Counted from the stretch's first letter, positions 3,001 through 61,745 are shown. The stretch is 64,000 bases of DNA from an uncultured Bacteroidales bacterium (GCA_959024545.1 CAUFFJ010000004.1:12584-76583); one strand, 5' to 3'. Program-made: numbers and translations. Notes: generated from the letters alone by a model not told the origin.

Positions 3001-5319
3001 CTGCTGGTCGAAGAAGCAGTTGGTGAAGCAGATGTCCTCAGGCAGGTCAGGGTATCCTTCTTCGTGGAATGCAAAGCCGAAGAGACCCTTGTTTCCCTCG
3101 GTAGAGGATGACGTGATCTGTCCTGAGTTATAGCAGTTGGTGAAATAGCTCTGCTGTATCATGGATACATTCGGGCCGGAGTGGAGATAGGCGAGCGACA
3201 GCTGTCCGGCGAGACCGCCCACGTTGTCATTGTCGCCGCTCATGATGATTGTGCCCGAGTTCATGCAGTCGTTGACCACGGCTCCTACTGTCAGACCGAA
3301 GAGGCCGCCGGCGTATGAGCTTGTGGACGAGCTGAGGCGGCGTCCGCTGATGGAGGCGGCGTTGATGCAGTTGGTAACAGTGCCGCGTGTGAGCAGACGG
3401 CCTGCCAGGCCACCGATGGCTCCGCGTCCGTAAGTATCTGAAAGTATGCCGATTACCATGCAGTCGCTCATGGTTCCTACCGAGAATACGCCGGCGATGC
3501 CGCCCACGTCGCGGGCCTTGGTCGAGATGAAGCCGTCCATATTGAACTGACCCTCTACCTTGCAGCCGGTGATTTCAGATTCGGATGCCTGCCCGGCGAT
3601 ACCTGCGATGGAGCCCATGCCGGTGATACGGCCGTGGAAAGAGCTGTTCTTCACCGTGCCCTGGAGCAGAGCTCCGCAGATGCCGCCTGTGAGCAGGCCT
3701 GATGTCTGAAGTATGCTGTTGCGTACGGTAACACCTTCGACAGTGCCTTCGCAGCGTCCGGCGACACATCCGATTTCCGTGCCGTTGCCGATAGCCATGA
3801 AGCCATCGAGCACAAGATTGCGCACGGCACCGGCCTTATCGATATAGCCGAACAGTCCGATATAGGGATAGCCCTTGCCGTCGATGCGCAGACCTTTAAC
3901 CGTATGTCCTTTGCCGTCGAAAATACCGGCAAAATGCGTTGTGGCATTTCCGACAGGCACATATTCGGTGACGGGAACTGCCGAGAGGTCGAGGTCAGCG
4001 CCGAGGGCGAAATGGCGTCCTGCGAAAGCATTGCCTCCCTCCACAGCCTGCGAGAGGGCAGTCAGTTCCTTGTAGGTGGATATGAGCCAGGGATCCGCAG
4101 CTGTGCCGCTTCCTTTGAAATCAACGCTTTCGGGCTGGGGGAAAGATATGTCGTAGGTGCCCGTAATCTTTACGTTGGCACGCGCCATCATCAGCATTGA
4201 GGCTGTCTCCTGGTCAGCTACATAGAAGCCTGCAAACGAGAGGGAGCCGTCGGCAGCGGGACGGGCCACAATAGGATTGGCGGTATCGGGCTTGCCGTTA
4301 GCGGTATTGACACCATATATATAAAAGGAGCCGTATATGCTGTGCTGGGCCACAAGCTGTGGCGAAAGTATCACAGTGCCGGCCGTGGTGAGACGGGCGC
4401 TGAGCGATGCCGTCATGCCGTCGAGCAGATGATAGATCATCACCTCATTGGGCGTAGTCTGCTCTACATACATCGGATATGTCACCACGTTGCCGCTTGC
4501 ACCGTCAGTGCCGCTGAATGTGGCATTGGGCACTGCCCATTGGCTGCTTTCGAAAATATTGAATGTAGCTTTGACTTTCTTAGAAGCCTCGTCGATGGCC
4601 ACTACCGCCCATCGGCCGAGAGTTACCTCGCCTTTGTCGTTGATCGTGCCGGCTATGGTGCGGTCGGTGGGTATCGAATATTTACCGTCGGCGCTCACGG
4701 TTACGGCTACTATGTCAATGTTGCCGTAAGCATCATTGTGTCCGAGGGTCTGCTGCGGGAGATAAACGCGCCCGGCAGCCGCGTCGACGGCCATTTTTAC
4801 TTTAGAATCCGTACCCCATTCAAAGAGGTTGGCCACTGTTACAGTGTCTGGGTGCCCGGTGGCTTCGACCGTTACAAGAGCTCCTAACATCTGGCCGTTA
4901 GTCGATTTGTCGCGTGAGATAAACTGTCCCGGCACAGCCTTTCCGGGAGCGCCGGCAGCGGGAGCCTTTATTGGGGCAGGGTCCTGACTGAAAGTGAATG
5001 AAATGCCTTTCAATGGCACGGGTAATGACGGAGAGACCGTAGGCGATTCCATCTGGAAATCGGCTTTTAGTGCCGTGTCGTCTGAGCTTATGGCCATATC
5101 ATCATAGCCAGGTTCCAGGGCGATGGCTTTGGTACGCGTATCCTGTCGGCCGACGGGAGGTGCGGGGATATCCGCAGTCTCGGCAGTCGCAGCTGGCGGA
5201 GCCATGGTCTGACGCAGCTCAGAGATGAAGCCGGTCGAGCCAGGGGCAGTCGTCGCCGCGTAGAGGGCCGGCAACGCCGCCCCCGTAGCAAGCAGGGCAA
5301 TCCTGATTTTTTTATTCAT
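1..5319 (-). CDS. Giant secreted repeat protein (GLUG-type beta-helix modules). It is N-terminally complete, and its C-terminus lies beyond the window start.
   Basis: Manual translation of minus-strand frame from ATG at 5319..5317 gives MNKKIRIALLATGAALPALYAA (signal peptide), then an uninterrupted protein-like reading to position 1. There are at least 3 modules beginning G(S/D/E)GTxxDP(W/Y)xIxT/S..., each followed by many repeats such as IENCVNxGxI / VGG(I/L)AG. No tracked minus ORF uses this frame (low coordinate = 1 mod 3); the track omits it because it has no stop inside the window. Confidence 0.6.
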   Translation of the reverse strand, partial: MNKKIRIALLATGAALPALYAATTAPGSTGFISELRQTMAPPAATAETADIPAPPVGRQDTRTKAIALEPGYDDMAISSDDTALKADFQMESPTVSPSLPVPLKGISFTFSQDPAPIKAPAAGAPGKAVPGQFISRDKSTNGQMLGALVTVEATGHPDTVTVANLFEWGTDSKVKMAVDAAAGRVYLPQQTLGHNDAYGNIDIVAVTVSADGKYSIPTDRTIAGTINDKGEVTLGRWAVVAIDEASKKVKATFNIFESSQWAVPNATFSGTDGASGNVVTYPMYVEQTTPNEVMIYHLLDGMTASLSARLTTAGTVILSPQLVAQHSIYGSFYIYGVNTANGKPDTANPIVARPAADGSLSFAGFYVADQETASMLMMARANVKITGTYDISFPQPESVDFKGSGTAADPWLISTYKELTALSQAVEGGNAFAGRHFALGADLDLSAVPVTEYVPVGNATTHFAGIFDGKGHTVKGLRIDGKGYPYIGLFGYIDKAGAVRNLVLDGFMAIGNGTEIGCVAGRCEGTVEGVTVRNSILQTSGLLTGGICGALLQGTVKNSSFHGRITGMGSIAGIAGQASESEITGCKVEGQFNMDGFISTKARDVGGIAGVFSVGTMSDCMVIGILSDTYGRGAIGGLAGRLLTRGTVTNCINAASISGRRLSSSTSSYAGGLFGLTVGAVVNDCMNSGTIIMSGDNDNVGGLAGQLSLAYLHSGPNVSMIQQSYFTNCYNSGQITSSSTEGNKGLFGFAFHEEGYPDLPEDICFTNCFFDQQVNRYPCAKFGRNTRDITGRLPEGYSADRWAIASGKYPVLKTFADTYAGALASVPLILREGDDANKVKVSFVLGRSPKVEWSLDGESGNTESDALSLNGSLATVKDIYSTAIVGATTTDGLGMKLYMLDVVPKVFDGDGTERSPYLLKTIDDFVKLHEAISTHRQPHAGDFFLMASDIDFNGDTRFKGFGNGSMISTGFGGTFDGGGHSIHNLKLDMATYKADGDFDPSCPNGYNGLFNQLNPTATVKNLNIAADCSFDFNIFSGAIVAFNRGRVENCRNYADVRGHQRQIGGIAGINYSGVITDCYNAGNVTCGTSVAGGISGYNYDGARIIRCQNDGDVAVRTTAPFNAKESKNSVGGITSDNYGLIENCVNNGQIYGDEIVGGIAAYTVASYLTADPNNPQKAVVHECEGIVRGCINNGQINCSGQTATRGAIIGQRGSSKEISANYYDGSINLTGGMQSNDVEGTTPLSTSELTGGKTVGSLSADIFDFKAGAYPVLKTFANEDASRALRSIFVKFAPSQIRTNIRESVELSQASGLKWELATSNGFSISGSTLNVVPPTGTTVLADTLTADLGSRYTKTYVINSVPVVFAGEGTLADPYRIESKADWKKLYEFVAATGWEYPNSHFIITRDIDFAGDSIQPVAYNGVRFQGNLNGNGKTLKGFVYDNPNGFANRIDPNNPNKFVAKGTGLFGSLGNSGVIRNLTIDGIIRGHSDMGGFAGHVYGTIENCVNRGLVGTNSSTSVGGIAFRLYDGGVIRGCVNEGKVLPDNGSDGGQTAAAGIAYYSYQNSLIENCINRGEVGHRLKSNYAGIVLSTSGTIRGCRNEKTLLGNANLYGIVGSMAANAVLEDCANTADFILPEASNVFGVFNSAAEGGTGYIKGCYNTGNLSVKNAVSGVGLTSYMPMTDCYNTGDITSANQRAVGVVHTLGVYSDIMTKSERRLVSSGLYNTGNVKGAYTQCAGIVSDLKEYMTLTDSYNLGDITQQHYGLCAGGVAA

Positions 5320-5540
5320 ACTGATTATTTTTGGTTTGTTAGATAAGGCTTAAGCGGAAAGGGAATTTATCAATTACTTAAGGCTTGTGATAAGATTCGC
5401 AGACAAGCGCCTGACTGCCGAGAGCCGGGCGAAAGGCAACTTATAGTCAACAAAGTTATAAAAAGTGGATTGACTGTGCAAATTCTCCTCAAAAATCTTA
5501 TACTATGATAATAAATTATGTATCTAAATGAAATAGGGAT

Positions 5541-5970: not shown

Positions 5971-6042
5971 GCAATAAATTCTGACCCGGCCAAATTTCCG
6001 GCCTCTTTCACCTCAAAATAACGTGAATTTATTCGCGCATCA

Positions 6043-6572
6043 TTAAATACTATTCGTAGGGATATATTGCTCAATATTGACAGAGGATAGCTTGCTGCCT
6101 TTGGCGATGACCTCCGCTATAAAGGCATTCACATCCTCTTTTGTCATTTTCTTCCTGATGAATGCATAATAGAGAAAATCAATCGTAGTCAGGTATGTTA
6201 TCTGATGATTGGCACAATACTCCCTTATATCCCGGAGATTGCTACTGCCGAGAACATCCTTGCTGTCACGACAATAGACCATGCAGGCACTTTCCCCCTT
6301 GCCTAAAAGAATGTGTTACGAAGTCGCGCATATTCAAATCGAGATTCGCCTTTCGGGTCAAACTTGACATTCACAATGCGTGAGGCAAAGAATTTGAGTG
6401 TATTGTCAATCTGGGTTTTCGTCAACCTGTTTACCGTGACTTCATCATATACCACATCAAGTATCAGATACTGATACTCCGGGAATATGTCAAGGAATAG
6501 GCTGAATTGCCCAGCCTTGACAAAATGGATGATCACATCGGCATCAAGTACGATTTTAGTCTTCGTTGTCAT
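6043..6572 (-). pseudogene. PIN-domain (VapC-like) toxin gene interrupted by a 1-nt frameshift in a T/A homopolymer
   Basis: The N-terminal part is the 89-aa ORF 6303..6572 (MTTKTKIVLDADVIIHF... ...FEYARLRNTFF*). The C-terminal part continues in another frame (HILLGKGESACMVYCRDSKD...ITYLTTIDFLYYAF...) to 6043. One extra T in the tttt run (plus-strand aaaa at ~6297-6300) would join them as ...RNTFFLGKGES... The conserved PIN acidic positions D(9), E(YDEV) and T.D..F are present. Confidence 0.5.
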
Positions 6573-6873
6573 CTATGCCGATTTTGTGTAACAGTTCCAT
6601 GTAGTGCCCTTCGGAAATTTTCTCCTCGTCAAAAAGCCTGCGGGCTTTCTCTCCGAAATCTCCAATCACAAGATTCTCATTGCCCGGCTCATACAAAGCC
6701 GTGTCATAGCCATACTCTCTTGCGGTTTTCTTCACAGGGTATTCCTTGAATGTATCGCGCTCGACACGGTCTATCAGTTTCAGATCATACAGACGGTTGA
6801 GAACGTCTGAGAAAGAAACGGAAAAATAATGTTCTATGCGCAATACCGATGCCAACGACACGCGACCTGCCAT
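6556..6873 (-). CDS. C-terminal domain ORF, in frame with and 3 nt downstream of the ImmA/IrrE peptidase ORF
   Basis: 105 aa. ATG at 6873..6871 lies in the same frame as 6877..7269, separated only by TAA (6879..6877) plus CTG. Confidence 0.4.
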   Translation of the reverse strand: MAGRVSLASVLRIEHYFSVSFSDVLNRLYDLKLIDRVERDTFKEYPVKKTAREYGYDTALYEPGNENLVIGDFGEKARRLFDEEKISEGHYMELLHKIGIDDNED

Positions 6874-6876
6874 CAG

Positions 6877-7269
6877 TTAATCATCAGGAATCATTTGCCT
6901 GACACCATCCGCCGGCATAAGAAACATAAGGGCAAAAGCATCGGCGCACTGCTCCACATCGTTTTTCTTACCCTCTGCCATGCAGTTGTGTGGCATGGGA
7001 TTCGGGTCGATATAAAGATGATAGAGTTCATGGGCTATTGTGAAATGCTGTCGGCATCGGGGATGATTCGAGTTGACAAGCATAAACCGCTTGTCTCCGC
7101 TTTTGAGGCTCATGCCCGAAAAATCTTTTGACAACGGTCTGTATATGGTCAACACGTTCAGTTTCAAGAGCAGGCTTTTGAGATTTACTGCCTCACTGTC
7201 ACTCAACCCTGTCATCTGACGGAATTTAGAGACCTGACTTTCCACAAGATTTAATAACGACGCTTTCAT
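6877..7269 (-). CDS. ImmA/IrrE family Zn-metallopeptidase (COG2856)
   Basis: 130 aa. HEXXH motif (IAHELYHLY) and downstream E..A.AFAL.FLMP motif. Start overlaps the XRE gene stop (ATGA at 7266-7269). Confidence 0.7.
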   Translation of the reverse strand: MKASLLNLVESQVSKFRQMTGLSDSEAVNLKSLLLKLNVLTIYRPLSKDFSGMSLKSGDKRFMLVNSNHPRCRQHFTIAHELYHLYIDPNPMPHNCMAEGKKNDVEQCADAFALMFLMPADGVRQMIPDD

Positions 7270-7601
7270 CTTGCTTCTATTGCCTCCATTTTAAGGTAAG
7301 ACTTTACAATGTCCTTGAAACGCATTATCTCGCCCGCATCCTCAGGGGTAATCCCGTCGATGCGGAACGCGGATGCAAGAATCATGGCATCCACATTATC
7401 GTTTTCCTCAAACATTATTGTCATATCACATCCGAAGAAATCGCTTGCTTTCTCAATGACATCGTAAGGCACCTCTCTGTCGCCCGATTCATAATTGCTG
7501 TAAGCCGAGCGTGTGATGCCAAGAGCCTGTGCCAGTTCATCCTGAGTATAGCGTGAAGTCTCTCTTAATTTCTTTAGATTCTGGGCGATTGTCTTGTCCA
7601 T
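7266..7601 (-). CDS. XRE-family helix-turn-helix transcriptional regulator
   Basis: 111 aa; ...LKKLRETSRYTQDELAQALGITRSAYSNYESGDREVPYDVIEK... is a typical HTH_XRE. Confidence 0.75.
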   Translation of the reverse strand: MDKTIAQNLKKLRETSRYTQDELAQALGITRSAYSNYESGDREVPYDVIEKASDFFGCDMTIMFEENDNVDAMILASAFRIDGITPEDAGEIMRFKDIVKSYLKMEAIEAR

Positions 7602-7780
7602 ATCATGATTGTTTCGTGTGGCAAAGTTACTAAATCTTTTTCATATATCAACGATTTGCCACGCTTAAATGTTGCCGCTTAAATGATGCAAACAGCTTTC
7701 CCCATATTCTTGGAAGTGTTGTAATTACCAATGTGAGATGGTTGGATACAACAAAAGCCTGATTGCTCAGGCTTTATTGC

Positions 7781-7866
7781 GGAGAGACAGGGATTCGAAC
7801 CCTGGGTGCCTAAAAGGCACAACGGTTTTCGAGACCGCCCCGATCGACCACTCCGGCATCTCTCCT
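7781..7866 (-). tRNA. tRNA-Ser (anticodon CGA)
   Basis: Minus-strand sequence GGAGAGATGCCGGAGTGGTCGATCGGGGCGGTCTCGAAAACCGTTGTGCCTTTTAGGCACCCAGGGTTCGAATCCCTGTCTCTCCG. Acceptor stem, 7-nt anticodon loop CTCGAAA, long variable arm and T-arm GGTTCGAATCC are all present. Confidence 0.85.
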
Positions 7867-10215: not shown

Positions 10216-11214
10216 ATGCAAAATATATCACGAGATATCGATGACCGGCGGCTAGCGGCTCTGATCGCGAAGTGGGAGAGGGCTGAACTTTCGGCCGAAG
10301 AAGAGCTCCTGCTTGAGGAGATTGCTACGGAATATGTGCTGACACAGTCGGGCGAAAGCTGTCGGGGAGTCCGGGCATCCGCCGATGAAGGGCGGGCGCT
10401 CCATGGAGCGCCCCTACAGGGGTCGGCGTGCCTGAGCCATGATGCTGAGCTGCGCCTGATCGCTGATCTTACGCTTGCCGCCTGTGTATCGGCATCTGCA
10501 GCCGGCAGATGGAGTGAATCGGAACTGTCGGGTCTCGATGCGCGGTTTGACGATGCTATTCATAAGGCTGCTCTTACCGAAAGCATTTCGGATACATCGG
10601 CCAATGCCTTGGCAGGCAAGGCACGACCCTCTAAAGCTTTCCGCAGGAAGTGGCTTCGCTTCGGAGTAGCAGCGGCGGTGGCCTGTCTGCTTTTCGGCGG
10701 CGGCTTGCGACTGATGCAGTATGATGCGGCCGCCCCCGTAGGGGCGCACCATGGTGCGCCCGCCCAAGAATCCGGGGCGCGATTGTCCATCAATGGGGAT
10801 GCGCCCGAGAAAACCAATCCTTTATCCGGGCGCACCATGATGCGTCCCTACCTGGCATCCGCCTCCGATGAAGGACGGGCGCAACATGATGCGCCGAAGC
10901 AGCCATCTGCCGGGGGACGTGAAGAATCGCGACCATACGAACTGGCCTCCGATGAAAGACGGGCGCATCATGATGCGCCCCTACAGTCCCCCGACGTTAT
11001 GGAAGAGGACGAGCCCTCGCAGCCCGTCTGGCTTCCGGCCACGGCATCGCTGCCGGCTACCCGCGACGATGACTCGCCGTTGATCACAGCCAAAGCAATT
11101 ACTTCCACAGCTAATCATCTTGATGATGCTTTCACAAGCGGAGAGAAAAGCGTGGCCCACGTTGCCCTTCTGCTTGAAGATCTTTTCGGCGACGGCATAT
11201 CGCTTGATGAATAA
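10216..11214 (+). CDS. Anti-sigma-factor-like membrane protein whose central part is encoded by palindromic repeat copies
   Basis: 332 aa; positioned between the ECF sigma and the DUF4252 protein. One TM (RFGVAAAVACLLFGGGL). Peptide repeats ASADEGRALHGAPLQ / ASASDEGRAQHDAPKQ / LASDERRAHHDAPLQ / GAHHGAPAQ are encoded by GGGCGCNNCATGNNGCGCCC palindromes at about 10378-10990. Confidence 0.45.
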   Translation: MQNISRDIDDRRLAALIAKWERAELSAEEELLLEEIATEYVLTQSGESCRGVRASADEGRALHGAPLQGSACLSHDAELRLIADLTLAACVSASAAGRWSESELSGLDARFDDAIHKAALTESISDTSANALAGKARPSKAFRRKWLRFGVAAAVACLLFGGGLRLMQYDAAAPVGAHHGAPAQESGARLSINGDAPEKTNPLSGRTMMRPYLASASDEGRAQHDAPKQPSAGGREESRPYELASDERRAHHDAPLQSPDVMEEDEPSQPVWLPATASLPATRDDDSPLITAKAITSTANHLDDAFTSGEKSVAHVALLLEDLFGDGISLDE

Positions 11215-11250
11215 ATACTTACCTTAACAGCCTATAAAATACTTACTTAT

Positions 11251-11718
11251 ATGAAACCTATCCTTACTCTTCTTTGTGCCCTGCTGATGACGGTGGCCAC
11301 TGCTTTTGCCGACGACAACGCCCTCTTCAAGGAGCTGGCCTCGCATAACGACATCCAGTATACTTACTTCTCTCCGGCAATGCTCCAGGCATTTGGCGAC
11401 CGGCAGATACGCACTAAAAATTTCTCGATTTCCGCATCCGATCTTACAAGCGTAGAGACGGTAAAGACCATGGGCGACGGTAAGGCAAATAAGGCCGTGA
11501 TGAACCAGGTGAAAAAAATAATCAAGAATGAGAAGCTGGAGGTGCTTGCCACCAAGACAAGTCAGTTAGGAAGCTATTATACTATCTTAGGACGTCCGCA
11601 GAAGAAAGGGCGCCAGCTCAGCCAGCTGCTCTGTATCGATTTCTCCGCTGCTGAATTTCTGACCGTAACCTATCTCAGAGGCAATATTACCCTCGATGAT
11701 GCCCGGCTGCCTTTCTGA
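11251..11718 (+). CDS. DUF4252 domain protein (secreted)
   Basis: 155 aa with a signal peptide. It has the typical position after an ECF sigma/anti-sigma pair in Bacteroidales. Confidence 0.6.
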   Translation: MKPILTLLCALLMTVATAFADDNALFKELASHNDIQYTYFSPAMLQAFGDRQIRTKNFSISASDLTSVETVKTMGDGKANKAVMNQVKKIIKNEKLEVLATKTSQLGSYYTILGRPQKKGRQLSQLLCIDFSAAEFLTVTYLRGNITLDDARLPF

Positions 11719-11765
11719 AGGCAGCCGCAGGCCGATTATGGCCGGATAACGCTATTTAAGGCCGG

Positions 11766-13937
11766 TCAGTCGGCAAAGTCGACCGAAAGGCCCAGCATCA
11801 GCCGCCGCGGATTGACCGGGTAATGGGGCATCGAGAAATAGTCTTTTGAGAAAAGCCCCTGGTTGACGTGGCTCCAGAGTACATAGAATCGCACCTTGTA
11901 GAGCCGGGCCGTAATATAAGCGTTGCAGAATGCATAGTTGCCCACCTTGGTCTTGTCCTGCGTATGGAATGTCATGGTGGCCGGCTGCAGCTCCAGCCCG
12001 TAGTAGCGGGTATACCAGTCGCAGTCGATTCCTATCTGCAGGTCGAGCACCTTAAAGGCACGGAAGTGCAGAAACATATTGCTGTAGATGCTGAGCGCCG
12101 GCAGCGGTATCACTTCTTTTTTCGACGAGGTCTGATAGGTGATGGTATTATTCCAGTTCCAGATGCCGAACTTCAGCTTCTGGTCAAGCGTGGCCGAGAA
12201 TATCTGCACGCTGCCCCCATATTGGCGCGGCAGCGACTCTGAATCGAAGTATACGTAATTCTGCACGTTCTCCACTCCGGCGCGGAGCACAGTCCGCGTC
12301 CAGGGTATCGTCAGCTCGCCTCCCACGCGGAACGAACGCGTCTTGCCGAAGTCATTGTTCCAGTAGAAATGATTCGATATGTATTTCTGCAGCAGATAGG
12401 GGACGGCCGTGTTGCGGAAGAAGCCGTATGCCCTTATGCTCACCGTATCGCCCAGCATCCTGAACCGTGTCGAGATGTCGCCGTTGATGTCGATATCGCC
12501 GGCCACCGAGCCCATGAGTCCGAATTTGGCGTCGGCGTTATAGCGTATCACTGCCCCTTGCTGCTTATTGATGCGACCTCCCACCCAGAGCAGGTGCGAA
12601 TTAGCTTTCGGGTCGATCCACGTCTCGGGCAGCGGCGTTATCTCGTGCTCGCTCTCGTCAGGGATGTAAAGCTCCGGATTCACCTGGTCATAATGCCGGT
12701 ATTCGTATGTGGCGTATGCTGCCAGCCCGAAGCGGGCCCATTTCCTGAAACCCTCTATCATCGATATGCCGATGCTGTTCGAAAGAGTCCAGTACCGCGT
12801 ATGATCCTCTGTCCGGTCGGCATTGAAGTATGCGTTAGGCCAGAACTCCCGTCCCTGCTCGCCGTCTCGATTCTTGAACTCATGGTGGCCTGCCCGATAG
12901 TCGAGCGAATAGATTATCTTGGTTACCGGTATGTATTTCTTACGTGTAAGCGTATCATTGACCTGCTCCTCCTCCCAGTAGCCTATCTTATAAGCATGGT
13001 TCATATAAAACTCCATGCCGTTTACCCGGTTCTGCGCCCGCGTCAGACGCGTGGGTATGCTTTTGGCCTCAATCTTGTCGACACCTCCCTGAAGCACACC
13101 CGGGTCCATGATGTAAAGGTCGTCGGTGATTCCGCCGTTGGCCTTGATCACAGTATTGAAATGATTCAGGAACGTCTGCGCTTCATATCTGTCGCCTAAG
13201 TAATAGAAGCTCAGTCCGAAATTCAGATTTTTTGCCGCCTGATTCTCATAGCACCCCTTCGAATGCAGATAGTCGATGAACGCCCCTATGCCTATCCGAC
13301 GGTTCACATTGCCTGCGAAGTCGGCCTTAAGCCGGTTCTGCGCATTCTCCTTATTGCCTCCGAAGTTATAGCTCAGTATTGTCGTGGGCACATATACGTT
13401 GTAGAACTTTGTCTTCTCAAATGAAGGTATCCACGGCGCTATGGCATCGTTGAAAAAGAATTTCGAATAATACGGCCTCTCGAAAAAGAGCATATTTATC
13501 CCCTCTCCCCCCAGATTACCCTGCGAGGCGTATGCGTCCGAGATCATCGAGGGGATGGTCTGCCGCTGATAGTTATAGGTAAGTGTATCGATGGTCGAGG
13601 GGAAATGCATGCCCAGCGGCAGGTCGAGCGTCCATGCCGAGCCCTTGCGCGTCTCCGATTCAGGGAGCGACTTAGGCGCCAACTGACGCAAACCACCTGT
13701 TGGAGCGCCCACGGGCTCCTGCGCCGCGGCCGTAGCCGTCACGGCACATATCAGTAGCAGCGCACCATGGTGCACCCGAAAATTGCAGCAATTGCTCGTA
13801 GGGGCGCGATCATCCATTTTTTGGTGCGCCCGCACAGACGGATACCCCGGACTCGGCAGCGACGCTATTATCCGCGACCATGCGCGGATGCTGCGATGGA
13901 GGATACCCCTCAAATGATATTTAAATGCGTCAAACAC
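11766..13937 (-). CDS. Outer-membrane beta-barrel (putative porin-like) protein
   Basis: ~690-723 aa, aromatic/Gly-rich beta-strand pattern. The track's start at 13937 is GTG and lies only 5 nt from a -7 box (caaagtta, 13942-13949). The real start is probably downstream near 13777 (VHHGALLLICAVTATAAAQEP is a signal peptide) and overlaps a repeat copy. Confidence 0.5.
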   Translation of the reverse strand: MFDAFKYHLRGILHRSIRAWSRIIASLPSPGYPSVRAHQKMDDRAPTSNCCNFRVHHGALLLICAVTATAAAQEPVGAPTGGLRQLAPKSLPESETRKGSAWTLDLPLGMHFPSTIDTLTYNYQRQTIPSMISDAYASQGNLGGEGINMLFFERPYYSKFFFNDAIAPWIPSFEKTKFYNVYVPTTILSYNFGGNKENAQNRLKADFAGNVNRRIGIGAFIDYLHSKGCYENQAAKNLNFGLSFYYLGDRYEAQTFLNHFNTVIKANGGITDDLYIMDPGVLQGGVDKIEAKSIPTRLTRAQNRVNGMEFYMNHAYKIGYWEEEQVNDTLTRKKYIPVTKIIYSLDYRAGHHEFKNRDGEQGREFWPNAYFNADRTEDHTRYWTLSNSIGISMIEGFRKWARFGLAAYATYEYRHYDQVNPELYIPDESEHEITPLPETWIDPKANSHLLWVGGRINKQQGAVIRYNADAKFGLMGSVAGDIDINGDISTRFRMLGDTVSIRAYGFFRNTAVPYLLQKYISNHFYWNNDFGKTRSFRVGGELTIPWTRTVLRAGVENVQNYVYFDSESLPRQYGGSVQIFSATLDQKLKFGIWNWNNTITYQTSSKKEVIPLPALSIYSNMFLHFRAFKVLDLQIGIDCDWYTRYYGLELQPATMTFHTQDKTKVGNYAFCNAYITARLYKVRFYVLWSHVNQGLFSKDYFSMPHYPVNPRRLMLGLSVDFAD

Positions 13938-14305
13938 GCTGCAAAGTTACAAAAAAAACGGCATCGCCGCAACCCGGCGCCCAAACAGCGCCGGCCCTCC
14001 TTCCGTAGGGGCGCACCATGGTGCGCCCGCACGCTCCTGCCAGAAGCTCCGGATGCTCCTTTATCTGGCCTTAATCCGCATTAAATCGCGTTACTATCCA
14101 TACCTTGATGTGTTTTCGGGCGCACCATGGTGCGCCTCTACTGATGAGTGGCGAAGCGCAGGATAAGGTCGGCCGCGCGGCTTACCGTACCGGGCCGATG
14201 GTACGGGTTATCTAGCCTACGAACTGAGTATCCGTCTCTTGCCGGCACGGTTTGGGGCGCACCCCATAAATGGATGATCGCGCCTCCTTCGGCCGCACCA
14301 TGGTG
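13757..14305. repeat. Cluster of at least 6 copies of a GC-rich palindromic repeat (core GGGCGCACCATGGTGCGCCC, often flanked GTAGG...CCTAC), including an inverted pair of a variant copy
   Basis: Copies at ~13762-13782, 13798-13835 (variant ggggcgcgatcatccattttttggtgcgccc), 14006-14031, 14112-14131, 14254-14285 (inverted variant ggggcgcaccccataaatggatgatcgcgcc), 14283-14303. Confidence 0.8.
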
Positions 14306-15355
14306 CGCCCCTACTTGGAGCAGTCGCCGCAGTCCGGTCTCGATCTCGGCCTGACCGGCGCCGCAGTCGATCACACTCAGGCCACGCGCACGCCCTGCCT
14401 GACGGTTGCCCACATTCAGCGTCGGCACTCCCAGCGACGGCGCCTCTATCAGTCCGCTCGAACTGTTGCCGGCTACTCCAAGGCTATGCGCCACCGCCGA
14501 GTGATATCGCCGCGCACCCAGCGAGGCCACCGCCCGGGCCCTTTCAGGCCGCGCCGCACACCATTCCTCTATCAGCCGCCGCACAGTCAGGCCGCCGCTG
14601 TCGGAATTGGGAAGCGTGAAGAGCACCTTTACGTCATCGGGCAGCGCCGACTCAAGGGCATCGAGAAAGGCCTGTGTCTGGCTCGCTTCCTCACCCGGCT
14701 CCATCGTCGCCGGATGATACGTAGCCACTATATAGCGCTCTCCGAGCGCGAAACCGATGTCGTTTTCTAACTGCTCAAGCGGCATCGGGCTGAAGCGCGC
14801 AAGCTCATCAGCTGCCGGCGAGCCTATGTAGTGCACCGCCGAGGGGTCTTTGCCCATCGAGATGACGCGCTGCCGATATTCCTCGGTCGAGGTGAGATGC
14901 AGCGAAGCCAGTTGAGTGATGGCATGGCGTATCGAATCGTCGTAAGCGCCTAAGGTAGTCTCCCCACCGTGCAGATGGACTATAGGTATGCCGAATATCA
15001 GTGCCGCCGATGCCGCCGTCAGCATCTCGTAGCGGTCGCCCAGTATCACCACGGCGTCTGGGCGCAGACGTGCCAGCGCATCGGCCATGCCGTCTGCCTC
15101 GCGTCCCATTGCCCTGACGGTCGAGGCCGGCGAGCCATCATCATCTTCAGAGAGCATCTCCACACGCGCGTCTATGCGGAAGCCGTCGGCTTCTATCTCA
15201 CGCCATGTAGAGCCGTAAAGAGGGGAGAGGTGCATATTGGTCGCTATCACCTGCAGCGTAGCCTTCTCTTTTATAAGGCGCATGATAGGCGCCATGATGC
15301 CATAGTCGGCGCGGCTGCCCGTGATGAAGCATATCTTAGGCGTATGCATATCCAT
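14138..15355 (-). CDS. neuC: UDP-N-acetylglucosamine 2-epimerase (hydrolysing), NeuC-like
   Basis: 405 aa; MHTPKICFITGSRADYGIMAPI... ...HLHGGE... The C-terminal ~50 codons run into the repeat cluster. Confidence 0.75.
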   Translation of the reverse strand: MDMHTPKICFITGSRADYGIMAPIMRLIKEKATLQVIATNMHLSPLYGSTWREIEADGFRIDARVEMLSEDDDGSPASTVRAMGREADGMADALARLRPDAVVILGDRYEMLTAASAALIFGIPIVHLHGGETTLGAYDDSIRHAITQLASLHLTSTEEYRQRVISMGKDPSAVHYIGSPAADELARFSPMPLEQLENDIGFALGERYIVATYHPATMEPGEEASQTQAFLDALESALPDDVKVLFTLPNSDSGGLTVRRLIEEWCAARPERARAVASLGARRYHSAVAHSLGVAGNSSSGLIEAPSLGVPTLNVGNRQAGRARGLSVIDCGAGQAEIETGLRRLLQVGAHHGAAEGGAIIHLWGAPQTVPARDGYSVRRLDNPYHRPGTVSRAADLILRFATHQ

Positions 15356-24667: not shown

Positions 24668-24751
24668 TGTCCGGGATGAGACTCGAACTCACACGGCCAA
24701 ACGGCCACTACCCCCTCAAAGTAGCGCGTCTACCAATTCCGCCACCTGGAC
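24668..24751 (-). tRNA. tRNA-Leu (anticodon GAG)
   Basis: GTCCAGGTGGCGGAATTGGTAGACGCGCTACTTTGAGGGGGTAGTGGCCGTTTGGCCGTGTGAGTTCGAGTCTCATCCCGGACA; long variable arm; anticodon loop TTGAGGG. Confidence 0.8.
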
Positions 24752-24774: not shown

Positions 24775-24850
<76 letters not shown>

Positions 24851-24907
24851 GAATGAGGATTTCAGTAATCCACTGCCAGTATTTCATTGTTCTCTCTTGG
24901 AGCGAAA

Positions 24908-24973
<66 letters not shown>

Positions 24974-51531: not shown

Positions 51532-52821
51532 TTATCCCGTTACAGACAGATATGTGTTATGTTCCTGTGCGATAAATTCTTTTAATGATTGTATTGCCTT
51601 TTTCTTAATGGCAGAGACAAAAGTCTCGATCAGAGAGTAATCAATCTCACCCGATAAATCAACGGGAAGTGGGATTGATTCGTTCCTGACTCGGTTCCAG
51701 GTCGCTTTCTTATCGTAGCTAAAGATTGATTTGATGGACTTTTGTATGGTGCAAGCCATAAAAAGGAGTGAGTTCTCTGTGTCGTTGTGTGTTCGTGCTT
51801 TAATCAAATATGCATCCCACAATACTCCCGTCCTTTGGGGCTGCGCATAAACATTCCCGGTTGCTATCGCTCCATTCTGCACAATGTCAATTGTCATTTC
51901 AGAAGAATCGAAGATGTCCGATTTGCCATAAAACATTATGCCGTTGTCGCCGTGTTTGGCATTGACCAGAGGGATAGTGAACTTTTCGTCTGGGGTTGTG
52001 GAGGTGTCTCTCCTCTTGTCGAACGTTTTGTTCTTTAATTCAAGTTTATCATACAGAGTCCCCATTTTGAAGTGTTTCCACTCGATTTTGCCGCTTTTAA
52101 AGAGTGAAAGAGTATCTGCCTCAGATTGAGAAAGTTCACAATTCTCGAAGCCTGCCTCGGAGAGGTAGGCTTCGAGTTCGCGTATACGCGACTCTTCGAG
52201 TTCGCGTATACGCGACTCCATAAACCGGTAGTTTATTTCGCCATCCTTGTCCAACGGCAATGGAATTTCAAAAGAGGATGCTATCTTCCGGTTGAATTTG
52301 TTCGCATAATCGAATCTGTGGGCTGCAGCCTTCTTGAAAAGAGCGACAAAATATAACATAGAGTGCTCAGACCATCCGGAAGATAATGGATATAATCCCT
52401 GAATATGTGAATAACCGATAAAGGGATCTGGCTGATAAAAGACGGCATCGGAGGTTGTGGTGTCACTATATGTTATTATTCCGCCATTCTCGGTAGACGG
52501 CAGATCAACATAACCCGATACACCATTATTTGAACTTGTATTTGTTATGACAGGAGTGTCACCGATAGTTTCAAATAATTTTGTATTTGTATACTTGTAC
52601 GCGGTAGTGGGATGTATGTCAAATAGTTGAGAAACAGAAAACAATTTGTAGCCGCCCTCGGGCAATGGCCATGACCGAGGGCTTACTGTTTTCCCAGGCT
52701 TTGTTCTCCTCTCTGTTTTAGAACCTGACTTACGCGCCAGGAGAGATAGTCCCTGACTACTTTCTGAAAATCTTCCATAGACGGGATGACATTGAATTTT
52801 CGATGCTGTTGAACAGTCCAA
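51532..52821 (-). CDS. Restriction-modification specificity subunit (HsdS-like; two target-recognition domains)
   Basis: Two TRD-like halves joined by a central conserved helical spacer containing ESRIRELE x2. The first ~45 codons overlap the upstream gene, so the true start is probably near 52700 (..WPLPEGGYKLFSV..). AT-rich. Confidence 0.65.
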   Translation of the reverse strand: MDCSTASKIQCHPVYGRFSESSQGLSLLARKSGSKTERRTKPGKTVSPRSWPLPEGGYKLFSVSQLFDIHPTTAYKYTNTKLFETIGDTPVITNTSSNNGVSGYVDLPSTENGGIITYSDTTTSDAVFYQPDPFIGYSHIQGLYPLSSGWSEHSMLYFVALFKKAAAHRFDYANKFNRKIASSFEIPLPLDKDGEINYRFMESRIRELEESRIRELEAYLSEAGFENCELSQSEADTLSLFKSGKIEWKHFKMGTLYDKLELKNKTFDKRRDTSTTPDEKFTIPLVNAKHGDNGIMFYGKSDIFDSSEMTIDIVQNGAIATGNVYAQPQRTGVLWDAYLIKARTHNDTENSLLFMACTIQKSIKSIFSYDKKATWNRVRNESIPLPVDLSGEIDYSLIETFVSAIKKKAIQSLKEFIAQEHNTYLSVTG

Positions 52822-54752
52822 TCGTTGCCCGTCAATGTGATATGGTCTTCAAAATAAGTTTCGCCCTCAACGAAATAGTGGAGGTTGTCATTGTTAAGAC
52901 CTTTACCAAAACGAACGAGTTTCACAACCTCGGCATACCGTTCTTTTGCGTGGTCGGTGTCACGAAGATTGACACTTTGACTTGATTTTTTACGATTCTG
53001 ACGAGTGTATCCGTCATTTGAAAAATCTATGAATTTAACGATTGATTCGGTGCTATGAGGTTCACCGACACGAAAAACGTATATAGCAGTCTGAACACTC
53101 GCTTTGCCGCAGAAAATATCGCTCATGCGTATAGAGGCGACAAGTGTGTTGTTTTTCAGAATATTTTCCGTATAAGGCATTCCGTTACCGCTGCCTGCAT
53201 TTTCCTGAATAAGGACTGCAGCCATACCTCCGTGAGTCATCAGGGATAATGCTTTTTCTACGAATATGAAGCCTTTTCCCTCGGCTGAGTATGGAGGATT
53301 GAGAAGGAAGACGTTAGCCGGAAATTCTTCGCCCTTGTGCCTGCCTTGTTCGTAAGTGCCTTCAAATTCAGTAAGCGAGTTTCCTTTGATTATGTTTGCA
53401 CTTCCATCCTTCATGAGAATCATGTTGAGGACAGCCAGCATATAAATTTCCGACAATTTCTCGATGCCGAGAAGCTGTTCCATTTTTATTCTGGCGATTT
53501 TAGCTTCCTGTTCTGCCGGACTCTTGATTTTCTCCTTTGCGTCGGCAATCATCTCGTGCATTGCCGAGATAAGGAAGCCGCCTGAACCGGTCGCGAAGTC
53601 CCATACATAACTGTTCATATTAACGTTGCAGAGTTTAGCCATAAGCTCTGTAACGTAACGAGGGGTGAGAACGACATCGTTCTTATCTCCATCGGGGACG
53701 TCTACCCAGGCGTTGAGAACGTTGAACATTCGGCCTGTAAAGTCCAGATTGTGGAGTTCTCCTGTCAGGAAAGGAATAATATTTGCCTTTACATCGGCAT
53801 ACGTTGTGTGAAGCTTGCTCTCGCCATTTATTGGGCGGTAAAGTGAACTATTATTGAATACGCCCTTAAGTTCGGTTTCAATAATCAATCTTTTTTCCGT
53901 GGGAAGGTCTTTTGCCTGCAGATATTCGGAAATACGGCTCATGATGATTGCTCCGTCGTTTATCTGCGAGCCGAGTTCTCCTCTCAGATCGTCAACTTTG
54001 AGAGGACTGACTTTACCCTTAACGCCGAGACCGGCCATTACCAGACCGGCAATAAGTTTAACGCGGGAACCCACGACAATATCTTGCTCGTCGTGTAGTT
54101 TCTGGTTAATCTCCTTGAGTTTACGCTCTATATCATCTTCGAGCTGAAGCTTCTTCGCTTCGATTTCTTCTTCCGTTAAGGAAAGATTGGTGATATTGTT
54201 GAGAAGCTGACCTAAGTTTTCGGGAAGAAGAAATGAAAGATCGGTATATTCAGCAATCTTTTTCGGAACAAAAAGATTATTCTTACTAACGTAGTAAGCA
54301 CCAATCTCATATTTGATTGTGCCGTCTGCAAGATGAAATCCGTTAACGCCGACAGCGATAACTTTATCGTAAGATTCGGTATAGTCAAGAATGGCTTTAG
54401 CATAATGAGCAGCACCATTGACGGCAAAGCCTGCTATATTGGTATACAGCGGTTCGCCTTTTGCATTAGTGTTTAGGATTTCTCCATGTTCATCACATTT
54501 GATTAAATCGCCCTGACGACCTTTAACCTCAATCATAACGGGTATATGCTCCATCTGAGGGGTTTCGATGAAGCACTGAATATCGGGATAGTTCCTGCCA
54601 TCACCCCCTTTTTTACTCGGAGCTTTGCGCAGTGCGTTGCCGATCTCATGGTTAATCTCCTCGGTTTTAGTATAGTAACGAGTGGTTGAAAGTTGATGCT
54701 TGCACCAATCTTCAACCTTTTCTTCGATGCTGTGTTTTGACTTTTTCGCCAT
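52683..54752 (-). CDS. Restriction-modification A subunit: N-terminal PD-(D/E)xK nuclease-like motif plus gamma-class N6-adenine DNA methyltransferase (BcgI-like Type IIB candidate, or atypical HsdM)
   Basis: Likely start MAKKSKHS (the ORF extends to 54824). Nuclease-like motif NYPDIQCFIETPQMEHIPVMIEVKG (PD...EVK). MTase motif I VWDFATGSGGFL, then motif IV NPPYS. A -7 box lies at 54899-54906. Confidence 0.55.
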   Translation of the reverse strand: MAKKSKHSIEEKVEDWCKHQLSTTRYYTKTEEINHEIGNALRKAPSKKGGDGRNYPDIQCFIETPQMEHIPVMIEVKGRQGDLIKCDEHGEILNTNAKGEPLYTNIAGFAVNGAAHYAKAILDYTESYDKVIAVGVNGFHLADGTIKYEIGAYYVSKNNLFVPKKIAEYTDLSFLLPENLGQLLNNITNLSLTEEEIEAKKLQLEDDIERKLKEINQKLHDEQDIVVGSRVKLIAGLVMAGLGVKGKVSPLKVDDLRGELGSQINDGAIIMSRISEYLQAKDLPTEKRLIIETELKGVFNNSSLYRPINGESKLHTTYADVKANIIPFLTGELHNLDFTGRMFNVLNAWVDVPDGDKNDVVLTPRYVTELMAKLCNVNMNSYVWDFATGSGGFLISAMHEMIADAKEKIKSPAEQEAKIARIKMEQLLGIEKLSEIYMLAVLNMILMKDGSANIIKGNSLTEFEGTYEQGRHKGEEFPANVFLLNPPYSAEGKGFIFVEKALSLMTHGGMAAVLIQENAGSGNGMPYTENILKNNTLVASIRMSDIFCGKASVQTAIYVFRVGEPHSTESIVKFIDFSNDGYTRQNRKKSSQSVNLRDTDHAKERYAEVVKLVRFGKGLNNDNLHYFVEGETYFEDHITLTGNDWTVQQHRKFNVIPSMEDFQKVVRDYLSWRVSQVLKQRGEQSLGKQ

Positions 54753-55186
54753 TGTAAGAATAAATTCCAGCGTAGCAATGCGGGGCCGACCAAAGCCTTT
54801 AAGCGACTCTGCCGGAGCTTCCAATGTTTTTGGTTACGGCTGTCGCCGTTATGCCGTTGTGATGTTCATGGTCATTTCGCATGACAATGCTTAGATTGCA
54901 AAGGTAGCAATTTTTCGCGAGATAACGGTATGCAATCCTAAAAATCTGCGAATTGATTCAAACGAACTATGTTTCCTATGTTTCTTCAACATATCTCCCG
55001 AGTAACACACATCTCATCAAACGGCTTATATGGCACACCAAGGATGTTTGATTGAGAGAACTTCTAATGTTGTTGACGGGATATCAAAATTAGATATTTA
55101 AGTAGCTGTTGAAAATTAAACGATATATGCAGACTCTAAAATCCTGAACCATAAAACTTGTGCTTTTTGGCGGCTTCGGTGTTGTC

Positions 55187-55250
55187 GCTGCAGGGTCGCA
55201 CCATGGTGCGACCGGCACTGGCAGCGGGCGCTTCATGAAGCGCCCCTACG
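55187..55250. repeat. Two more copies of the palindromic repeat family (gggtcgcaccatggtgcgaccg; gggcgcttcatgaagcgcccctacgg)
   Basis: Same core palindrome as at 10.4-11.0 kb and 13.8-14.3 kb, intergenic between the RM insert and the C10 peptidase gene. Confidence 0.75.
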
Positions 55251-61379: not shown

Positions 61380-61745
61380 AACAAAGCGAGAGAGCAAAGG
61401 GCCACAGCCGCAAGGTGATGGTGAGGAAAGGTATCGTTGCAAATGCCTCAGGGCCGTGAGTAATGAGCCTTCCGAAGATATTCAGACAAGATAAATCTTC
61501 TACCACATCAAAGTAGACTGGGAAACTCATCAAATCTTATAGAAATACCGAGACAAGCTTGCTTTGTCAATGGCGGGCCGCGACATCTGAAAGGGTGTTG
61601 TTCCGGATGACGGGACACGGCGGATTACAAAGATGGGGAAGCACTCAAATCCTGTCACTCGGAGTTTCATCGCATCCTTTGATGTGGACCCTATAGGCCG
61701 ACGGTCGACGCATTTACAGGCGGCCGTCGGCTTTCTCTTATTGAA
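61380..61745 (+). ncRNA. Candidate structured RNA or cis-regulatory leader ending in a Rho-independent terminator
   Basis: 11-bp long-range complement ccacatcaaag (~61499) / ctttgatgtgg (~61677). Terminator hairpin ccgacgg...ccgtcgg followed by ctttctcttatt at ~61697-61745, 32 nt before the nfsA start. No convincing ORF. Confidence 0.25.

Follow-up and report, generated by a model that had tools for sequence, protein, structure and literature searches.

Short GC-rich hairpins, many of them in frame within genes, are probable GTAG-tagged REP elements of an uncultured gut Muribaculaceae bacterium

A 64,000-nt stretch of DNA from an uncultured Bacteroidales bacterium (GCA_959024545.1 CAUFFJ010000004.1:12584-76583; this whole stretch is called the window in the following) contains a family of short, GC-rich hairpin repeats. 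The repeats are very probably repetitive extragenic palindromic (REP) elements with a GTAG tag, closest to the "canonical long REP" type of REP-associated tyrosine transposases (RAYTs) of subclass 2.4 (group 4 of Bertels), and spread by a RAYT. The anatomy of the repeats, the covariation of their paired bases, their dispersal, and the association of the hairpin class with RAYT genes in other phyla were observed. The host is an uncultured gut Muribaculaceae bacterium; LepA from the window shares 97% identity with a protein that carries the name "MAG: Muribaculaceae bacterium" (MAG, metagenome-assembled genome). MAG GCA_900761855.1 contains the locus of the window too, as do several metagenome assemblies (ENA, Logan).

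A first, sequence-only reading had described at least 13 copies in three hot spots. The relaxed core GGGCGCNNCATGNNGCGCCC, with up to two mismatches, had 10 matches in the window, compared with 0.09 +/- 0.32 in 100 dinucleotide-preserving shuffles, none of which reached 10, and the repeats were confirmed to be genuine. Repeat finding together with relaxed, oriented fuzzy matching revealed 14 elements at the three places already named; the copy at 10775-10806 had been overlooked. Eleven elements are short (A-type) and three have a long loop (B-type). The A-type is a 25-nt unit with an 8-bp stem and a CATG loop, and with all copies in one orientation its consensus is 5'-GTAG-GGGCGCAC-CATG-GTGCGCCC-G-3'. 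The B-type has the same GGGCGC/GCGCCC stem and a loop of about 19 nt (GATyrTCCAnnnAnGGrGT). The full repeated unit spans 25-35 nt. The tag reads GTAG in 9 of the 11 A copies and GCAG in one, the opposite end is always G and never CTAC, and the foot GTAG-GGG...CCC occurs in the consensus and in 8 of the 11 A copies. All window copies are thus single-foot, with GTAG/CTAC on one side and G on the other, and therefore the 28-bp perfect palindrome after which the family had first been named has no copy in the window, though it is present in other genomes. The elements, followed by the genes that they overlap, are:

10393-10417, minus strand: A-type REP, GTAG GGGCGCTC CATG GAGCGCCC G, stem perfect, -9.9 kcal/mol; in frame (RALHGAPL) in the anti-sigma-like open reading frame (ORF)
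10738-10762, plus strand: A-type REP with the exact consensus sequence GTAGGGGCGCACCATGGTGCGCCCG; in frame (VGAHHGAP)
10775-10806, plus strand: B-type REP, GGGCGCGATTGTCCATCAATGGGGATGCGCCC; head-to-tail composite with 10738-10762
10827-10851, minus strand: A-type REP with two mismatches; in frame (GRTMMRPY)
10876-10900, minus strand: degenerate A-type REP, tag lost; in frame (RAQHDAPK)
10960-10984, minus strand: A-type REP, loop ATCATGAT, stem perfect, -9.7 kcal/mol, z = -3.8; in frame (RAHHDAPL)
13754-13778, plus strand: degenerate A-type REP within the 5' end of the Porin_10 ORF, signal-peptide region (RVHHGALLL)
13798-13832, plus strand: B-type REP with its own GTAG; its loop holds the annotated Porin_10 ATG (13815-13817, minus strand)
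14005-14029, plus strand: A-type REP, identical to the consensus, intergenic, -12.1 kcal/mol; left half of a pair with 14117-14141
14117-14141, minus strand: A-type REP; its GTAG tag gives the TAG stop of neuC (14138-14140, minus strand)
14255-14285, minus strand: B-type REP, in-frame NeuC insertion (GGAIIHLWGAP)
14290-14314, minus strand: A-type REP, in the same in-frame NeuC insertion as 14255-14285 (VGAHHGAA)
55190-55214, plus strand: A-type REP, tag GCAG, compensated stem GGTCGC...GCGACC; left half of a head-to-head dimer
55225-55249, minus strand: A-type REP, loop TTCATGAA; right half of the dimer, 95 nt downstream of the Peptidase_C10 stop codon
10216-11214, plus strand: lineage-specific ORF of 332 amino acids (aa), the anti-sigma-like ORF, directly downstream of an extracytoplasmic function (ECF) sigma factor gene; six REPs in frame
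11766-13817, minus strand: Porin_10 gene; 5' end overlaps two REPs
14138-15355, minus strand: neuC-like UDP-GlcNAc 2-epimerase gene, Epimerase_2 at aa 31-348; REP composite insertion and REP-derived stop codon

Two head-to-head pairs are formed, 55190-55249 with a spacer of 10 nt and 14005-14141 with a spacer of 87 nt, and a second copy of either doublet was not seen. Head-to-tail A-to-B composites are found at 10738-10806, 13754-13832, and 14255-14314. Nine of the 14 copies are inside ORFs and in frame with them, two overlap a start or stop codon, and three are intergenic.

Predicted folds of the single-stranded DNA have a 4-nt loop on an 8-bp stem, with energies from -8.8 to -12.1 kcal/mol and z-scores from -2 to -3.8. 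In an alignment of 14 copies, 12 of which are distinct, 89.6% of the stem cells were paired, and both sides had changed in 3 of the 8 stem pairs (GGTCGC/GCGACC at 55190; AC/GT to TC/GA, AT/AT, and TT/AA). The covariation score was 0.18 versus 0.068 in shuffles, of which 1 in 500 reached it, and it was at most 0.07 when the partners were slid. The stem changes are thus compensated and not conserved, a pattern that fits if selection acts on the pairing and not on a single fixed sequence. A role of the repeats as palindromic sites in double-stranded DNA, be it for a dimeric regulator, a restriction-modification enzyme, or DNA uptake, is therefore very improbable. Two points are in favour of such sites: the core forms a perfect palindrome around CCATGG or CATG, and a type I restriction-modification methylase gene adjoins one dimer. 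However, the element as a whole is asymmetric, with GTAG on one side, the long-loop variants retain the stem and not the centre, and the copies lie in unrelated ORFs. The one-sided GTAG at the foot of a GC-rich 8-bp hairpin, the dimers and tandem composites, and RAYT genes elsewhere that are flanked or invaded by such hairpins (see below) bear out the early comparison with REPs and bacterial interspersed mosaic elements (BIMEs). The parallel comparison with miniature inverted-repeat transposable elements (MITEs), which have a body of 100-400 bp between terminal inverted repeats and target-site duplications, was abandoned: the unit has 25-35 nt without terminal inverted repeats around a body, and the flanks are unrelated (target duplications were not looked for). 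A CRISPR reading was also rejected.

The hairpins might instead act on the level of the transcript, as 3'-end stabilizers, terminators, or attenuators that are selected for this role and are not mobile, and such roles of REPs have been published (PMC3733652). The dimer at 55190-55249 lies 95 nt past the stop codon of the Peptidase_C10 gene and upstream of the type I methylase gene, which are on the same strand, and the pair at 14005-14141 is downstream of neuC. We nevertheless regard this explanation as unlikely. No T-runs follow the hairpins, and a terminator scan flagged only one copy (10961-10980), with a weak tail; its total of 8 in comparison to 5.2 +/- 2.2 in shuffles was no excess. A separate terminator-like hairpin with T8 is present at 13958-13970, nine copies lie within ORFs, in several frames and on both strands, and the GTAG tag as well as the RAYT association elsewhere would be left unexplained. 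The region downstream of neuC (13941-13993, minus strand) contains a hairpin (CCGGCGCCCAAACAGCGCCGG), the terminator-like GCGGCGATGCCGT followed by T8, and then the motif TAACTTTG, which we take to resemble the Bacteroidetes -7 promoter element. With this arrangement, the two REPs near the porin gene would fall within its 5' leader or its start region. With Rfam 15 at the gathering threshold, no match was found at the repeats, and the only matches in the window were tRNAs and the Bacteroidales-1 RNA.

The coding context turned out to be unusual. The cluster at 10.4-11.0 kb is indeed inside a coding sequence, as had been described, but the same holds in part for the cluster at 13.75-14.3 kb, which covers the Porin_10 5' end, the intergenic region, and the neuC 3' end. 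The 332-aa ORF has no match in Pfam or NCBIfam; its position and a central hydrophobic segment suggest that it encodes an anti-sigma factor. All six elements of this cluster are in frame, using two frames of the unit (RALHGAPL/VGAHHGAP versus GRTMMRPY). Only six allele clusters of this ORF are present in the database, with 84-98% identity. Most of the differences between them fall on the REP sites and consist of indels of 12, 21, and 45 nt, each a multiple of three. At 10393-10417, the window has a short A copy, and alleles L181 and L183 have long-loop versions at the same position. The A copy at 10738-10762 is absent or replaced in alleles P0122 and P0125, and the B copy at 10775-10806 is tandemly duplicated (45 nt) in allele L183. 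A proposed subfamily with the 5' extension CCGATGAAGGRCGG did not hold up: the extension occurs three times, always in this one ORF, and it was absent from the other loci fetched up to then, so it represents a local intragenic duplication of a REP with its flank and not a dispersed subfamily.

In neuC, the insertion can be delimited by homology. The alignment of the window's NeuC with eight homologues, retrieved from 1.84 billion representative proteins, runs to about residue 345. Next comes a segment of about 24 residues (VGAHHGAAEGGAIIHLWGAP...) that the homologues lack, and homology is regained at the NPY motif. The extra segment includes the 60-nt A+B REP composite. In addition, the ORF stops 15-20 residues before the ends of the homologues, and its TAG is the tag of the REP at 14117-14141, on the minus strand. 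For the Porin_10 gene, the REP at 13798-13832 possibly donates the start codon, as its ATG is the annotated start.

The translated repeats raise the question of whether selection acts on a protein motif (GAHHGAP or similar) of secreted or envelope proteins and has brought about the DNA repeat as a side effect. In favour of this, the anti-sigma-like ORF has three ASDEGRAxHxAPxQ units that share one frame and whose flank was duplicated along with them. However, the frame in which the DNA unit is read varies, giving VGAHHGAP/RAHHGAPL, GRTMMRPY, and GAPWCAP (in a spurious ORF), and the unit occurs on both strands, in intergenic DNA, and as non-coding sequence in many phyla. The distribution over frames and strands already contradicts selection on a protein motif, and we give this explanation hardly any credence.

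Next, the dispersal of the family is considered, as a local duplication would produce copies confined to the window. A scan of metagenomes with the exact 24-mer of the window found 51 loci. About 17 distinct, non-overlapping contigs (samples ERZ1106943 and ODUU01) had a tetranucleotide correlation with the window of 0.82-0.95. The respective values were 0.94 for the 9.5 kb flanking the window, which served as the positive control, 0.70-0.92 for the window's own 5-kb pieces, and 0.76 for the best of 119 loci from other phyla. These contigs have only the REPs in common with the window, and the flanks of different copies are unrelated. They carry the single-foot A consensus, several of them with a B element adjacent, and the head-to-tail A-to-B composite recurs in one metagenome locus (L146). 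The presence of the 24-mer on unrelated contigs with the composition of the window indicates that the family is dispersed and is not a local duplication. An origin from rRNA, tRNA, or phage had been named as a further possibility. The repeats had no tRNA, rRNA, or Rfam match, and none of the viral contigs had the ACCATGGT-loop form or the composition of the window; the repeats are not phage-derived.

The hairpin class is widespread outside of this lineage. A scan of one genome per species for GTAGGGGCGCNNCATGNNGCGCCC yielded at least 119 loci, in Chloroflexota, Gemmatimonadota, Acidobacteriota, Planctomycetota, Desulfobacterota, Binatia, Cyanobacteria, Armatimonadota, Zixibacteria, Serratia/Erwinia, one Bacteroidetes MAG, and others; no Muribaculaceae locus was among the matches listed. 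The loop AGCATGCT was found in 131 of the 170 matches listed, many of which are the full "double-foot" palindrome GTAGGGGCGCAGCATGCTGCGCCCCTAC, and the class also occupies non-coding positions in many phyla. The identical 28-bp double-foot sequence was observed at more than 100 loci (L007-L125) of at least 15 phylum-level lineages and on 28 contigs of a viral collection (IMG/VR, L187-L214).

RAYT genes were searched with phmmer, using E. coli YafM and then the ORFs of two of the loci from other phyla, L013 and L045. In L045, palindromes at 6971-6998 and 7611-7638 bracket a RAYT-like ORF (7003-7602). In L013, palindromes flank the RAYT-like ORF at 3516-4367 and are also in frame inside it, and the same is true for the ORF at 121-741 of L134, whose internal copy has the ACCATGGT loop of the window. 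The three proteins have the motifs NHVH or DHVH, WQRNY, and YIxxNP. They match NF047646 REP_Tyr_transpos with E = 1e-17 to 1e-19, at 62-68 bits and thus under the equivalog cut-off of 80; the L045 protein matches Pfam Y1_Tnp above the cut-off. More than 8000 relatives are present in the protein database, and many of them are named "REP element-mobilizing transposase RayT". Among the best 120 RAYT homologues, 53 contain an in-frame REP between the HUH and Tyr motifs; in 34 it is the translated GGGCGCAGCATGCTGCGCCC hairpin (GCGCAG type), and in another 19 a translated sister hairpin with a CATG centre as well (GTAGGGGCACGGCATGCCGTGCCCCTAC, GCACGG type; one example is in L186, 4280-4330). These best 120 relatives come from environmental lineages. 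Two abundant RAYT candidates (P0108 and P0099) were rejected, as their contexts are unrelated, and a search of the viral contigs found no RAYT relatives.

Because the anatomy is shared and REPs are associated with RAYTs in other phyla, we infer that a RAYT mobilized the copies in this genome. For TnpA_REP of E. coli, recognition of a folded single strand and of GTAG has been established biochemically and structurally (PMC3479197, PMC8266576). By analogy, the units would be non-autonomous DNA hairpins that are bound and cut as single strands by a RAYT of the HUH/Y1 type. The GTAG at the hairpin foot would be the recognition tetranucleotide, by means of which units would be copied to new sites. 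In this Muribaculaceae lineage, the sites are fixed among close strains and turn over between more distant alleles, where loops are expanded or contracted and copies are duplicated in tandem or replaced. Coding sequences have taken up many copies in frame and gained from them linker residues as well as a stop codon and, possibly, a start codon.

Several observations weigh against the proposal of a RAYT-spread family. The 64-kb window, the related loci L001-L006 and L181-L185, and the 10 kb past the right end yielded no RAYT; the sole match in the window, the anti-sigma-like ORF, was discarded, as it arose via REP-encoded peptides. The 51 metagenome loci contain no RAYT either, with the exception of L134, which is GC-rich and has its closest named RAYT homologue in Anaerolineales. 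Six assemblies with 99.2-99.99% identity to the window keep every REP in place, without any presence/absence polymorphism. Recent mobility is therefore not demonstrated by the close strains, whereas turnover between distant alleles is. Lastly, an overlap with ORFs, seen for 11 of the 14 copies, is not what is typical of "extragenic" palindromes. A minority of REPs is documented to be intragenic (PMC3733652, PMC6006769), and thus this weakens the typicality of the family and not its identity. In 64 kb, 14 copies in three clusters were counted; GTAG-tagged REP families typically have more than 100 copies per genome.

Part of these observations would be accounted for if the repeats were relics without an active transposase. 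A RAYT would have seeded the copies in an ancestor and later been lost, and the copies would persist passively or as structural elements of RNA or DNA, changing only via slippage, duplication, and recombination. Many strains of E. coli have lost their RAYT in this way. Among the close strains every site is fixed, the allele differences are loop indels, the 45-nt tandem duplication, and a segment replacement, with no clean insertions, and no RAYT is present in about 74 kb. The copies at 10876 and 13754 are degenerate, and two window-specific single-nucleotide polymorphisms (SNPs) disrupt stems. One of them, at 10845, breaks the stem of 10827-10851, with the consensus C in L002 and L003 (2 of the 4 compared assemblies); the other, at 14293, breaks the stem of 14290-14314, where the window has C and L001-L004 have the consensus G. 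Some species have also been described to lack REPtrons, in which a REP and its cognate RAYT share a genome (Di Nocera 2013, PMC3733652). On the other hand, many metagenome copies are exactly the 25-nt consensus, suggesting recent copying or homogenization, and the RAYT search covered about 2-3% of a typical genome. Taken together, we consider relic elements to be a real possibility, yet clearly the less probable one compared with elements spread by a RAYT.

REP sequences are usually lineage-specific. The near-identity of GTAGGGGCGCAGCATGCTGCGCCCCTAC across phyla may thus be due to horizontal spread of group-4 RAYTs or to a very constrained recognition element. This close similarity of the 24-28-nt hairpin over many phyla is striking, although it is not part of the main finding. 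As a single, admittedly speculative and rather improbable claim, the hairpin GTAG-GGGCGC-(N2)CATG(N2)-GCGCCC and group-4 RAYTs could be one horizontally spreading system, with a recognition element that would have stayed near-identical over 24-28 nt in 15 or more phylum-level lineages, which range from Chloroflexota and Gemmatimonadota of soil to Muribaculaceae of the gut. In the last of these, the system would actively remodel coding sequences, giving rise to in-frame linkers, a stop codon, and possibly a start codon plus the N-terminus of a signal peptide, and switching between short and long loops at one site.

Some further observations were made at or near the repeats. A more distant allele, represented by L181 (13892-15426) and, at the same position, L182, contains an insertion sequence (IS) with DUF772 and DDE_Tnp_1_6 ORFs and the inverted repeats AGGGTGTTGCrGAACTCCCT. 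It sits at the place of the REP pair 14005-14141 (window 13975-14141), where the NeuC C-terminus differs. An insertion of this IS targeted to the REP was considered and rejected: the junctions show that the whole REP pair is replaced, the flanks have diverged, and there is no clean target. The 55.2-kb dimer had appeared to be deleted in L185, but a scaffold N-run stands there instead (L185 18157-18166, aligned to window 55190-55249). This N-run lies exactly at the REP dimer, and hairpins of this kind can break or gap short-read assemblies. At window 52683-54824 and downstream (L184 20837 onward), this dimer and an AT-rich spacer have immediately downstream of them a type I restriction-modification methylase gene (N6_Mtase) and then the gene of a specificity subunit (Methylase_S).

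Elsewhere in the window, a Bacteroidales-1 RNA (suggested to be a 6S RNA) was found at 61501-61695 on the plus strand (119 bits), and tRNA genes at 7780-7865, 24668-24751, 24778-24850, and 24901-24973, the last two of which are identical. A module of about 1.7 kb at about 6040-7600, between the L31 and MatE genes, encodes an HTH_3 regulator, an ImmA/IrrE-like Peptidase_M78 protein, and two small ORFs; it is missing from alleles L181/L182 and is thus a strain-variable cassette. Between the window and L001-L004 (about 99.4-99.99% identical), SNPs are concentrated at 5000-5500 and 12000-13000. In one 500-bp bin near the end of a gene for a 2128-aa Glug-domain protein 79 SNPs were counted, and 58 within the Porin_10 gene. 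This clustering points to recombination or to diversifying selection that acts on surface proteins.

Most studies of REPs and RAYTs concern Proteobacteria. The presence of GTAG-tagged REPs in Muribaculaceae, an abundant and largely uncultured gut family, widens the host range that is concretely described; the current understanding of REP biology is unchanged by the findings. The REPs explain recurrent odd peptides (GAHHGAP, GRTMVRPY, GAPWCAPT) as well as discrepancies of start, stop, and length in the gene calls of Muribaculaceae MAGs, and the family flags sequences that can break assemblies. The intragenic copies with allelic loop lengths are a small natural experiment on mobile hairpins that are absorbed into proteins.

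A literature search found no paper in which this sequence is named or REPs of Bacteroidales or Muribaculaceae are described. This agrees with the initial failure to assign the repeat to a described Bacteroidales family; the REP type itself has been described (RAYT subclass 2.4, PMC6006769). In the survey of Di Nocera, GTAG repeats were found in Proteobacteria, Cyanobacteria, Chloroflexi, and the Planctomycetes-Verrucomicrobia-Chlamydiae (PVC) group, and only CGTC-tagged repeats in Bacteroidetes; TAG stop codons from tags and intragenic copies were also reported (Di Nocera 2013, PMC3733652). RAYTs of subclass 2.4 are abundant in Cyanobacteria and Bacteroidetes and scattered elsewhere (PMC6006769), and they correspond to group 4 (Bertels 2017, bioRxiv 10.1101/119735). 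Their REPs have GT[AG]G and three G-C pairs, include "double-foot" forms, and are inserted in frame, also into the transposase gene (Quentin 2018, PMC6006769).

The window family has much in common with the superfamily of GTAG-tagged REPs (PMC3733652; Nunvar 2010, PMC2817692), namely a GC-rich stem-loop of 20-40 bp in which GTAG stays unpaired and is found at one end only, a 6-9-bp stem whose variants are complementary, head-to-head dimers, clusters, TAG stops derived from tags, and occasional in-frame intragenic copies. It differs in its host, a member of the Muribaculaceae (Bacteroidales), and in that most copies overlap ORFs. The REPs of subclass 2.4 (PMC6006769) likewise have a 5' GT[AG]G directly before a hairpin with a foot of three G-C pairs and in-frame copies in genes without disruption, and the RAYTs of L013, L045, and L134 share the motifs NHVH or DHVH, WQ, and YIxxNP with this subclass. 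In contrast, the window copies are single-foot, with double-foot forms in other genomes, and the loop of the window is ACCATGGT, whereas AGCATGCT dominates in other phyla among the matches listed. The E. coli REP/BIME system with TnpA_REP (RayT/YafM; structure 4ER8, PMC3479197) also has inverted dimers, and recognition of hairpin and GTAG by a HUH/Y1 enzyme would be a further likeness, but its stems are longer and bulged, and its RAYT belongs to subclass 2.2. REPINs, described for group 2/3 RAYTs mostly in Gammaproteobacteria (Bertels & Rainey 2011, PMC3116915), resemble the inverted pairs with a short spacer at 55190-55249 and 14005-14141. Unlike for REPINs, there was no sign that a doublet replicates as a unit; what recurs, both in the window and in L146, is the head-to-tail A-to-B composite. 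In summary, the kind of element is already known, and its local peculiarities are the many in-frame intragenic copies, the donation of a stop and possibly a start codon, and the alternation of short and long loops at one orthologous site.

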